From Clostridia bacterium (GTDB lineage Bacteria > Bacillota > Clostridia > TANB77 > CAG-465), in the NCBI GenBank assembly GCA_036653755.1, contig JAVVTJ010000021.1, forward strand, positions 1 through 15,625: a stretch of DNA of 15,625 nucleotides, given 5' to 3'. Numbering within the stretch: position 1 is the stretch's first letter; each line of letters starts with the position of its first letter. The notes below the pieces were generated by a model. The model had not been told where the DNA came from and made no database searches. It saw only the letters and a program-made list of their open reading frames with translations. The translations under genes were made by a program, and so were the position numbers. Shown piece by piece: positions 13,681 through 14,094 of the stretch.

Positions 13681-13896
13681 TCAGATGGTGAATGAAATGA
13701 ACCAAATGATTATTGTAGCACTGTCCCCTGATCAGATGAACTAAAAAAGGTACTATTAATAAATGGAGGTACTTCGGGTCTAATCAAGAGGTCTACCGAA
13801 TTTGCTGTGGGGGTAAATACCATAGATAAACTACAAAAGTGATGAATTAAAATGGAATGAAGTCCCACAGCAAATTCGGGGTAGACTTTAAAAAAC
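13681..13896 (+). repeat. Tandem intergenic repeat, copy 1 (contains a long hairpin; candidate structured RNA or DNA cruciform)
   Basis: Core 13733-13896 aligns to 13930-14094. Hairpin arms 13791-13812 / 13863-13886 with a ~50-nt loop. Copy 1 carries an extra ~30 nt near its 5' end relative to copy 2. Confidence 0.85.
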
Positions 13897-13908
13897 TAAA
13901 AAAATGAA

Positions 13909-14094
13909 TTAGATGGTCTGTAGCATTACCAGATGAACTAAAAAAGGTGCTATTAATTAATGGAGGTATTTAGGGTCTAATCAAGAAGCTCCCTGAATTT
14001 GCTGCGGGGCTGTAATACCATAGATAAACTGCAAAAATGATGAATTAAAATGGAATGAAGTCTCGCAGCAAATTCAGGGTAGACTTTAAAAAAA
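13909..14094 (+). repeat. Tandem intergenic repeat, copy 2
   Basis: By hand alignment, about 18 substitutions and one 1-nt indel against copy 1 over ~165 nt. Hairpin arms 13991-14011 / 14059-14079. Confidence 0.85.

Follow-up and report, generated by a model that had tools for sequence, protein, structure and literature searches.

Structured elements known from diversity-generating retroelements (DGRs) include the target hairpin of the BPP-1 type, which is located 4-34 bp downstream of the variable repeat (VR) and has a GC-rich stem of 7-10 bp with a 4-nt GRNA loop (Guo et al., 2011; PMC3240598), and the RT-1 to RT-19 motifs, including RT-14 (RF02921), which are structured non-coding elements tied to the loci of DGR reverse transcriptases (RTs) (Weinberg et al., 2017; PMC5737381). 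The MutS_I-like gene that is found in relatives of the DGR described here is the accessory gene MSL (MutS-like) of 'Architecture D' (Wu et al., 2018; PMC5758913). The control of DGR activity and the role of this MutS-like accessory gene are poorly understood. Here, we analyze a DNA stretch of 15,625 nt from a Clostridia bacterium (GenBank assembly GCA_036653755.1, contig JAVVTJ010000021.1, positions 1 to 15,625; referred to as the window), which carries a DGR, and specifically two tandem, hairpin-bearing repeat units that separate the DGR target gene from avd (accessory variability determinant).

We put at roughly 0.4 the probability that the structured non-coding leader which related DGRs of gut Clostridia carry between the target gene and the MSL-avd-RT-TR genes is present here in a lineage-specific form that has been duplicated in tandem, and that the two units act in cis as an RNA of the + strand. 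An original prediction, made from the sequence of this stretch, had described two tandem repeats with a long hairpin in the spacer; its individual claims are taken up below together with the results that bear on them.

Two hairpin-bearing units directly downstream of the target gene

Tandem Repeats Finder reports a single array at 13733-14093 (period 198, 1.8 copies, 89% matches), and a gapless alignment of the core (13733-13896 versus 13930-14094) shows 19 differences in 165 columns, which corresponds to ~88% identity. The two tandem repeats are thus real, and the units start earlier than the array, as similarity begins directly after the stop codon of the target gene, with TCAGATGGT at 13681 and with TTAGATGGT at 13909. 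Unit 1 (13681-13908, 228 nt) and unit 2 (13909 to ~14097) are both on the + strand, and unit 1 is longer by ~31 bases. The two-copy arrangement is also present in two separate Logan assemblies (L001 and L002).

Each unit carries three features: a post-VR motif, a small hairpin (P0) which presents AAATGGAG, and a long hairpin. Unit 1 carries an intact post-VR motif (GTAGCACTGTCCCCTG, then CAGATGAAC; 13715-13741, + strand), and the version in unit 2 has degenerated (GTAGCATTAC; 13920-13938), which is expected if the motif matters only beside a VR. Folding places P0 (AGGTACT / GGTACTT) at 13748-13774 on the + strand in unit 1 and at 13945-13971 in unit 2.

Long hairpin 1 (13788-13889, + strand) has a core stem formed by 13796-13812 and 13863-13879, which closes a 50-nt apical region (13813-13862). 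Long hairpin 2 (13970-14089, + strand) has a 21-bp stem (13991-14011 / 14059-14079) and an outer helix in which 13970-13979 pairs with 14080-14089. Both were detected as inverted repeats (I1, 13796-13823 / 13852-13879; I6, 13991-14011 / 14059-14079) and by folding, and they score 124.6 and 125.7 bits, respectively, with R1, a covariance model of the long hairpin of the window. The core stem of 17 bp, which has an AT-rich centre (GAATTTGCTG), extends to 21-23 bp. The apical region matches the conserved loop of ~50 nt in the original prediction; it is 96% identical between the copies and is partly paired internally (CCAT/ATGG). The base of the stem had been described as differing in sequence yet being paired in each copy, which we confirm, with the addition that the pairing partners differ: in hairpin 1, GTCTAC (13791-96) pairs with GTAGAC (13881-86) across a GG bulge, while in hairpin 2 the distal GGGTCTA (13973-79) pairs with TAGACTT (14080-86). 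Downstream of unit 2, folding predicts an A/U-rich hairpin (AAAAAACTATGTTTTAGTCTTTTT; 14102-14125, + strand) on the 5′ side of a ribosome-binding site (RBS). Compared by eye, it appears to resemble the last hairpin (AAAAAACTAAATTAAAATTTAGTTTTT) in the spacer of the related locus L003.

The unit boundaries carry a microhomology (end of the target gene, CTTTAcAtAAAA; end of the unit, CTTTAAAAAA), and slippage between these two sequences is the simplest explanation for the duplication. It had been suggested that the repeats might be the footprint of a lost second target gene, in which case a former tandem target would have lost its coding part and left its 3′ flank behind as unit 2. Two targets do occur in some relatives (L024, L058), and unit 2 opens with the degenerate post-VR motif. 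However, the second targets of these relatives are located elsewhere and not in tandem, there is no VR-like, target-like, or IMH-like (initiation of mutagenic homing) sequence upstream of unit 2, and a duplication which starts at the stop codon explains the motif equally well. As the boundary microhomology fits a simple tandem duplication, a lost target gene is unnecessary and we consider it highly improbable.

Conservation of pairing between the two units

Folding of region 13681-14140 resulted in z = -6.6 on the + strand. All core pairs of the long stem (17/17) are standard pairs in both copies. The two compensatory changes that had been named are correct, namely C13797:G13878, which becomes T13994:A14076, and T13808:A13867, which becomes C14005:G14065; a third stem change, from G13810-C13865 to G14007.T14063 (G-C to G.U), can be added. 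In a neutral simulation with 18 random substitutions in 164 nt, at least two compensated pairs were obtained in 0.3% of the trials, and this number dropped to 0.04% when, additionally, no pair was allowed to be broken.

Identity between the copies is unevenly distributed. It amounts to 93% in the 5′ module, 96% in the apical 47 nt, 100% in the 3′ tail, and 83-93% in the stem arms, but only to 25% in the stem base and internal loop, two short blocks into which 9 of the 19 differences fall. The stem arms are more diverged than the apical region, the 3′ tail, and the 5′ module, as is typical of structured RNAs whose loops are sequence-specific. Each one-sided change in the stem results in a G.U pair on the + strand, and the same is true for both differences between the two P0 hairpins. 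Per unit, the + strand folds better by 10-13 kcal/mol and has 9 G.U pairs, compared to 1-2 on the - strand. This pattern of G.U pairs favours an RNA on the + strand.

The arms of the two long hairpins are also able to pair with each other. The 3′ arm of hairpin 1 (13861-13881) and the 5′ arm of hairpin 2 (13991-14011) are 86% complementary (I7). Their pairing would result in an attenuator-like alternative fold. Relative to the local hairpins, this pairing between the copies is weakened by the compensatory changes that are specific to each copy.

In agreement with the original prediction, six-frame translations revealed no reading frame that is open in both copies. A shared mini-ORF (open reading frame) of 6 codons, which starts with ATGGAG (MEVLRV / MEVFRV), was rejected as a gene. 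In relatives, it lacks a Shine-Dalgarno sequence and varies in length from 4 to 25 codons, and ATGGAG is therefore treated as a nucleotide motif. An alternative genetic code that might conceal an ORF was ruled out, because all + strand genes of the window stop with TAA and because reading TGA as a sense codon does not lengthen any + strand ORF.

In region 13500-14300, no sigma-70-like promoter was found, while 3.2 would be expected, and there are no terminator-like sites, which agrees with the reported absence of a terminator-like T tract. Each long stem is followed by TTTAAAAAA and not by a U tract, so that the combination of GC-rich hairpin and U tract which characterizes rho-independent terminators is absent. 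The lack of both promoter and terminator fits read-through from the target gene.

The corresponding spacer in related DGRs

The RT, avd, the template repeat (TR), and the VR were mapped in 88 related loci, which are DGRs of uncultured gut Clostridia. The closest RT is just 59% identical. Exact look-ups of the Avd, the RT, and a Tad4-like protein, aimed at other strains of the species, returned only Logan contigs of 1-2.2 kb, which originate from the runs SRR25820353, SRR25820366, and SRR25820368. With the closest RT at 59% identity and matches from the same run series only, there is no near sister sequence which could contribute further covariation.

In one of the layouts found among the relatives, the target gene is followed by a spacer of ~100 nt which often contains a terminator. 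In the other, the order is target, a spacer of 150-400 nt, a MutS_I-like gene coding for 130-200 aa (MSL), avd, RT, and TR. The window has the latter layout, with MSL reduced to a stub, and ~60 related Clostridia DGRs carry a non-coding spacer and MSL in the slot which is held here by the repeats.

In a large sub-clade, this spacer is structured, with strong support from covariation. It contains, in order, a hairpin P1 (e.g., CTTAACGA...ACGTTAAG), a long nested hairpin P2/P3 (GGAATTTTT...AAAAATTCC), and two to four tandem units of 13-16 nt, each of which is a small hairpin (CCAC-TAAC-GTGG). The last tandem hairpin is followed by U6, which makes it an intrinsic terminator, and then by an A/U hairpin, the RBS, and MSL. 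For 12 sequences and 32 pairs, 89% of the cells are paired, compared to 44-51% in slid controls, and compensatory changes are found in 17 of the 32 pairs, a level that is reached by none of 500 shuffles. A covariance model built from this leader (R2, which covers P1, the nested P2/P3, the tandem hairpin repeats, and the terminator) matches at least 16 loci, always on the + strand and upstream of MSL. The leader has a length of ~125 nt, includes two of the tandem CCAC-UAAC-GUGG hairpins, and is located at 2154-2279 in L023, at 1377-1500 in L026, at 1368-1495 in L037, at 3015-3142 in L084, and in at least 12 further loci. It does not match any Rfam 15 family even at E <= 0.5. In this leader, the core of the P1 hairpin (TAACG or TAGCG) and that of the direct repeats seem to co-vary.

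The sub-clade which is nearest to the window (L003, L018, and L094-L096, with RTs that are 55-58% identical) has a different, multi-branched leader. P1, P2, and P3 of this version show covariation between L018 and L094-L096 and are followed by GAGTTAAC-type repeats.

Relationship and distribution of the repeat units

In each unit, only the initial ~70 nt (5′ module) can be aligned with the nearest sub-clade (L003, L018, and L094-L096): CTG...CAGAT is followed, after 25-26 nt, by AAATGGAG, which resides in a hairpin. This distance from CAGAT is the same in the window, L003, L018, L094, and L095, while the stem of the hairpin that bears AAATGGAG differs in every lineage. The resemblance of the long hairpin to P1/P2 of this sub-clade is confined to a helix core and a helix junction. 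The core, ATTTGC/GCAAAT, is common to the long hairpin and to P2 of L018 and L094-L096, and its neighbour pairs covary; the outer helix is immediately adjacent to the 5′ side of this core, in the window as in the four relatives. Based on these features, the long hairpin may be homologous to helices P1/P2 of the nearest relatives, and it could represent a derived P1+P2 stack which has lost P3 and gained an apical insertion of ~60 nt.

The short post-VR motif is the only match that blastn returned for the 88 related loci, and the long hairpin has no sequence or model match in any of them. Neither IMG/VR nor any of 185,579 GTDB representative genomes contains an exact match to the 23-nt loop pattern. 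Three matches to this pattern in JGI metagenomes were rejected because they cover only 24-28 nt, and five viral matches to a gapped stem pattern were rejected because they fail model R1. No blastn match to the element was found in phage and plasmid collections. A scan against Rfam, which had been proposed as a check, resulted in 0 matches at the gathering threshold in the window. Sub-threshold matches (MIR403, DUF2815, PreQ1, and others; 13-18 bits, E ~1-7) are at chance level; the match to the DUF2815 RNA (RF03084) has 17.2 bits compared to the 41.2 bits required, with E = 3, and spans the junction of the units. Neither the RT motifs (RT-1 to RT-19) nor other Rfam families reach the threshold in region 13500-14300 (best 17-18 bits, E ~1-3). 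The element is best read as a lineage-specific variant within a wider group of DGR leaders that is undescribed as far as Rfam 15 and the covered literature are concerned.

The distribution also bears on the idea that a palindromic mobile element, resembling a miniature inverted-repeat transposable element (MITE) or a repetitive extragenic palindrome (REP), was inserted into the spacer and then copied together with its flanks. A size of ~100 bp, terminal inverted repeats of ~20 bp, and a non-coding interior would suit such an element, and the lack of a homologue in related DGR loci is as expected of a recent arrival. On the other hand, the 15.6-kb window contains no further copy, the GTDB representatives, IMG/VR, and the phage and plasmid collections contain no match, and the JGI (24-28 nt) and viral matches fail. 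There is no target-site duplication (the flanks are AAGAG/TTTAA for copy 1 and GAAGCT/TAGAC for copy 2), the flanks have been duplicated together with the hairpin, and the ATTTGC/GCAAAT core is common to P2 of relatives. Dispersed copies were not found in any of the collections searched (window, 88 related loci, GTDB representatives, IMG/VR, JGI, phages, and plasmids). A repeat that is dispersed only within this genome is conceivable; overall, we consider a mobile element very unlikely.

A motif next to the variable repeat

In 44 of 54 related loci, a motif of the form [N]CTG-N3-5-CT[GA] occurs <=60 nt away from the end of the VR, compared to a background of 1.9%. In loci with two targets, a CACTGnnCACTG-type motif follows both VRs, and it never follows a TR. 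The post-VR motif has the form (GTAG)CACTG-N2-3-CACTG, which is located at 13715-13730 in the window and at ~3562-3577 and ~6213-6228 in L058. In a by-eye reading of related spacers, a GC-rich GRNA hairpin of the BPP-1 type is not evident after the VRs. The CACTGnnCACTG-type motif may be the target-recognition signal of this DGR clade.

These data are relevant for the proposal that the hairpins function as DNA, as a target-site cruciform. Cruciform extrusion, or a palindrome that is bound by Avd/RT or a host factor, would aid cDNA integration at the VR or mark the target, and the hairpins would be a greatly enlarged analogue of the BPP-1 hairpin. For efficient retrohoming, BPP-1 requires a DNA hairpin in cis, downstream of its VR (PMC3240598), and in the window the hairpins are downstream of the VR on the same replicon, with stems that are nearly perfect inverted repeats. 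However, the hairpin bases are 118 and 300 nt away from the VR end, compared to 4-34 bp in known cases, and a 50-nt loop on mixed stems of 17-23 bp contrasts with the 4-nt GRNA loop on GC-rich stems of 7-10 bp. An enlargement of the loop by 2 nt abolished BPP-1 activity (PMC3240598). Furthermore, the G.T positions would weaken a DNA cruciform, relatives with a short spacer are devoid of any such element, and it is the CACTGnnCACTG motif that tracks almost every VR in this clade. The cruciform proposal thus fails for distance, stem, and loop alike, and we consider a DNA-level element unlikely.

The MSL remnant

The ORF at 14160-14264 (+ strand) is a 34-codon remnant of MSL (MTFLEFVNNIKEDNK...), which has its own RBS (GGAGAAAGGAAAAG; 14142-14155) and overlaps the start of avd by 23 nt. 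It aligns with only the first 20-25 residues of MSL proteins (the N-termini of five were compared), and tblastn showed 55% identity over 20 aa to MSL from L006. There are no MSL pseudogene remnants inside the repeats: tblastn with at least 30 MSL proteins resulted only in the N-terminal stub (14145-14204). Possibly, the stub is kept for translational coupling of avd.

The reduction of MSL to 34 codons is one of the arguments for considering the units a decaying relic. The leader would have been rearranged, and duplicated by microhomology slippage, after the loss of most of MSL; its palindromes would persist due to template-switch correction or due to the short time elapsed, and it would have no present function. 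The microhomology shared by the unit boundaries fits such a simple tandem duplication, the clustering of 9 of the 19 differences in two short blocks suggests multi-base events, and a homologue of the hairpin was not found in any relative. Against a relic speaks that no core pair is broken in either copy at a divergence of ~11%, that one-sided changes are tolerated only as G.U, which would not be favoured by a DNA correction mechanism, and that conservation is lower in the stems than in the apical 47 nt and the 5′ module. Also, the remainder of the DGR is intact, with a diversified VR. We regard a relic devoid of function as possible but rather doubtful.

A proposed role of the units

As neither promoter-like nor terminator-like sites were found in the spacer, a common transcript probably covers the target gene, spacer, MSL stub, avd, RT, and TR. 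In this RNA, each unit would fold into a small hairpin which presents AAAUGGAG, followed by an imperfect hairpin of 21-23 bp with a sequence-conserved apical region. With 21-23 bp, the stems are as long as those of RNase III substrates or of structures that block 3′ exonucleases. Given this stem length, the hairpins would most likely serve in processing or insulating the transcript, which would allow the amount and stability of the target mRNA to be set independently of those of the avd-RT-TR RNA. A parallel role is conceivable in relatives, where the same slot would decouple target expression from DGR RNA by a structured leader which ends in an intrinsic terminator.

Several points weigh against assigning the units to these leaders. 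Transcription of the spacer is an assumption, and relatives use a terminator while the window is devoid of one. The z-scores are alike on both strands (-6.6 and -6.9), and the G+T richness of the + strand could partly explain the G.U bias. The long hairpin is represented by two sequences only, so that the covariation rests on two pairs, and template switching in a DNA quasi-palindrome can yield 'compensatory' changes without selection on RNA. Model R1, when applied to 614 kb of related DGR loci, matches only the two copies in the window, and R2 does not have a match in the window at E <= 1. Homology to the leader of the relatives looks weak beyond the 5′ module. Finally, MSL is truncated here, so that the region may be decaying.

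The earlier assignment as a DGR-associated structured element can be upheld in part. It is consistent with a complete DGR, with pairing beyond chance, with a position in the slot of structured leaders, and with the shared 5′ module; for the long hairpin, a match in relatives is lacking. A broader proposal is that the window hairpins and the leaders of relatives, for which support is considerably stronger, constitute one undescribed class of DGR cis-regulatory RNA, which sets the amount of DGR RNA by termination/antitermination in relatives and by processing here. We put this forward very tentatively and consider it somewhat unlikely. Such a DGR leader RNA might be read by MSL or Avd, which would provide the MutS-like protein with a nucleic-acid partner.

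Taken alone, the window element is a single-lineage oddity, and its value comes mostly from the family context. The terminator-bearing leader upstream of MSL-avd-RT in many gut Clostridia DGRs and the duplicated hairpin described here, in a lineage with a truncated MSL, suggest that a layer of regulation or processing is interposed between the diversified gene and the machinery that diversifies it. If true, this offers a concrete RNA for read-through control, RNase processing, and MSL or Avd binding, and it implies a design constraint for engineered DGRs.

The DGR and its genomic context

The window has 24% G+C and represents a Firmicute chromosome, with rpoD and a ctsR-mcsA-mcsB-clpC operon being present. 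tRNA and tmRNA genes were not found in the window. The DGR occupies the 3′ third of the window and is complete, with the gene order target(VR) - spacer - avd - RT - TR - RT-14. The target gene (11197-13680, + strand) was taken from the ORF list and codes for a protein of 827 aa with Ig-like repeats and a C-terminal FGE-sulfatase/C-type-lectin-like region (weak Pfam matches to FGE-sulfatase, fn3, and Ig). Its VR (13538-13670, + strand), which includes the IMH-like 3′ end GGCTTTCGTCCTGCGCT, was identified by a 133-nt match to the TR; among the 23 mismatches over 133 nt, 18 are at TR adenines. The avd gene (14242-14613, + strand; Pfam bAvd, E = 3.9e-18) is followed by the gene for the DGR RT (14603-15625, + strand; 340 aa; Pfam RVT_1), the stop codon of which ends with the final base of the window.

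The TR is located just past the window end, downstream of the RT. It was found on L001, a Logan contig which was retrieved by exact-protein look-up and runs 353 nt past the end of the window. On this contig, the TR is at 1938-2070 (by its match to the VR), and directly 3′ of it is the Rfam RT-14 RNA (RF02921) at 2066-2151, with 51 bits compared to a gathering score of 48.1. The idea that the spacer holds the repeats instead of a TR can thus be dismissed, and the repeats have no similarity to the VR. In nearly all relatives, the TR is downstream of the RT as well. In two relatives, it is located between the target gene and MSL (L046, 2871-3011; L064, 792-923), which indicates that the TR position is not fixed in this clade. 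An RT-14 RNA directly 3′ of the TR is found in this DGR and in at least 18 relatives; it is probably the counterpart of the 'Sp' priming region of BPP-1.

Within the target gene, region 12000-12870 contains two tandem copies of ~516 nt that are 81-84% identical and represent a repeated Ig/fn3-like module of ~172 aa. The AT-rich intergenic region upstream of the target gene (10656-11196) contains several short tandem repeats, e.g., AAAATATAGTTGT x2.3 at 10845-10873, and is likely the promoter region of the operon. An ORF for 262 aa (9867-10655), which immediately precedes the DGR target region, has a C-terminal Tad4 domain (type I Thoeris inhibitor; 4.6e-21) and, in addition, a weak match to RuvC/Ydc2-like resolvases; it represents an anti-defence gene of the phage type in chromosomal surroundings. 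The clpC gene (region 7332-9759) is in two frames, 7332-8987 and 9040-9759, which overlap at ~8950-8987, and is thus affected by a frameshift, a pseudogene, or an assembly error.

Comparison with described systems

The RT-14 RNA differs from the repeat units in its position, as it is directly 3′ of the TR and ~2 kb away from the repeats. The BPP-1-type hairpin has in common with the window that an inverted repeat is located downstream of the VR and that pairing rather than sequence is conserved. In contrast, the window hairpins start at 13788 and 13970 with the VR ending at 13670, which results in the distances of 118 and 300 nt, and they occur in two copies, with changes of the G.U type pointing to RNA. 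It had been emphasized that the stem is far longer and the loop far larger than in the BPP-1 type, and this holds (17-23 bp, mixed, and 50 nt in the window versus 7-10 bp and 4 nt).

Intercistronic stem-loops, mRNA stabilisers of the REP type, and RNase III processing hairpins are known in bacterial operons. The window element resembles such stabiliser and RNase III hairpins in having long, near-perfect stems without a U tract between cistrons of one operon, and these are sometimes arranged in tandem. Its large sequence-conserved apical region, however, is not a feature of simple stabiliser hairpins.

Compared with the leader between target gene and MSL in relatives, the window lacks the direct repeats of 13-16 nt and the U-tract terminator, and its long hairpin has no match by sequence or model. 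It is a whole element of ~200 nt that is repeated rather than a hairpin of 13-16 nt, and the MSL behind it is truncated. Shared with this leader are the slot, from the post-VR motif to the RBS of MSL, the strand, and the restriction to DGRs, and also a long irregular hairpin of similar size, hairpin units in tandem, and a final A/U hairpin. The nearest sub-clade has, in addition, both the CAGAT...AAATGGAG module and the ATTTGC/GCAAAT core that are present in the window.

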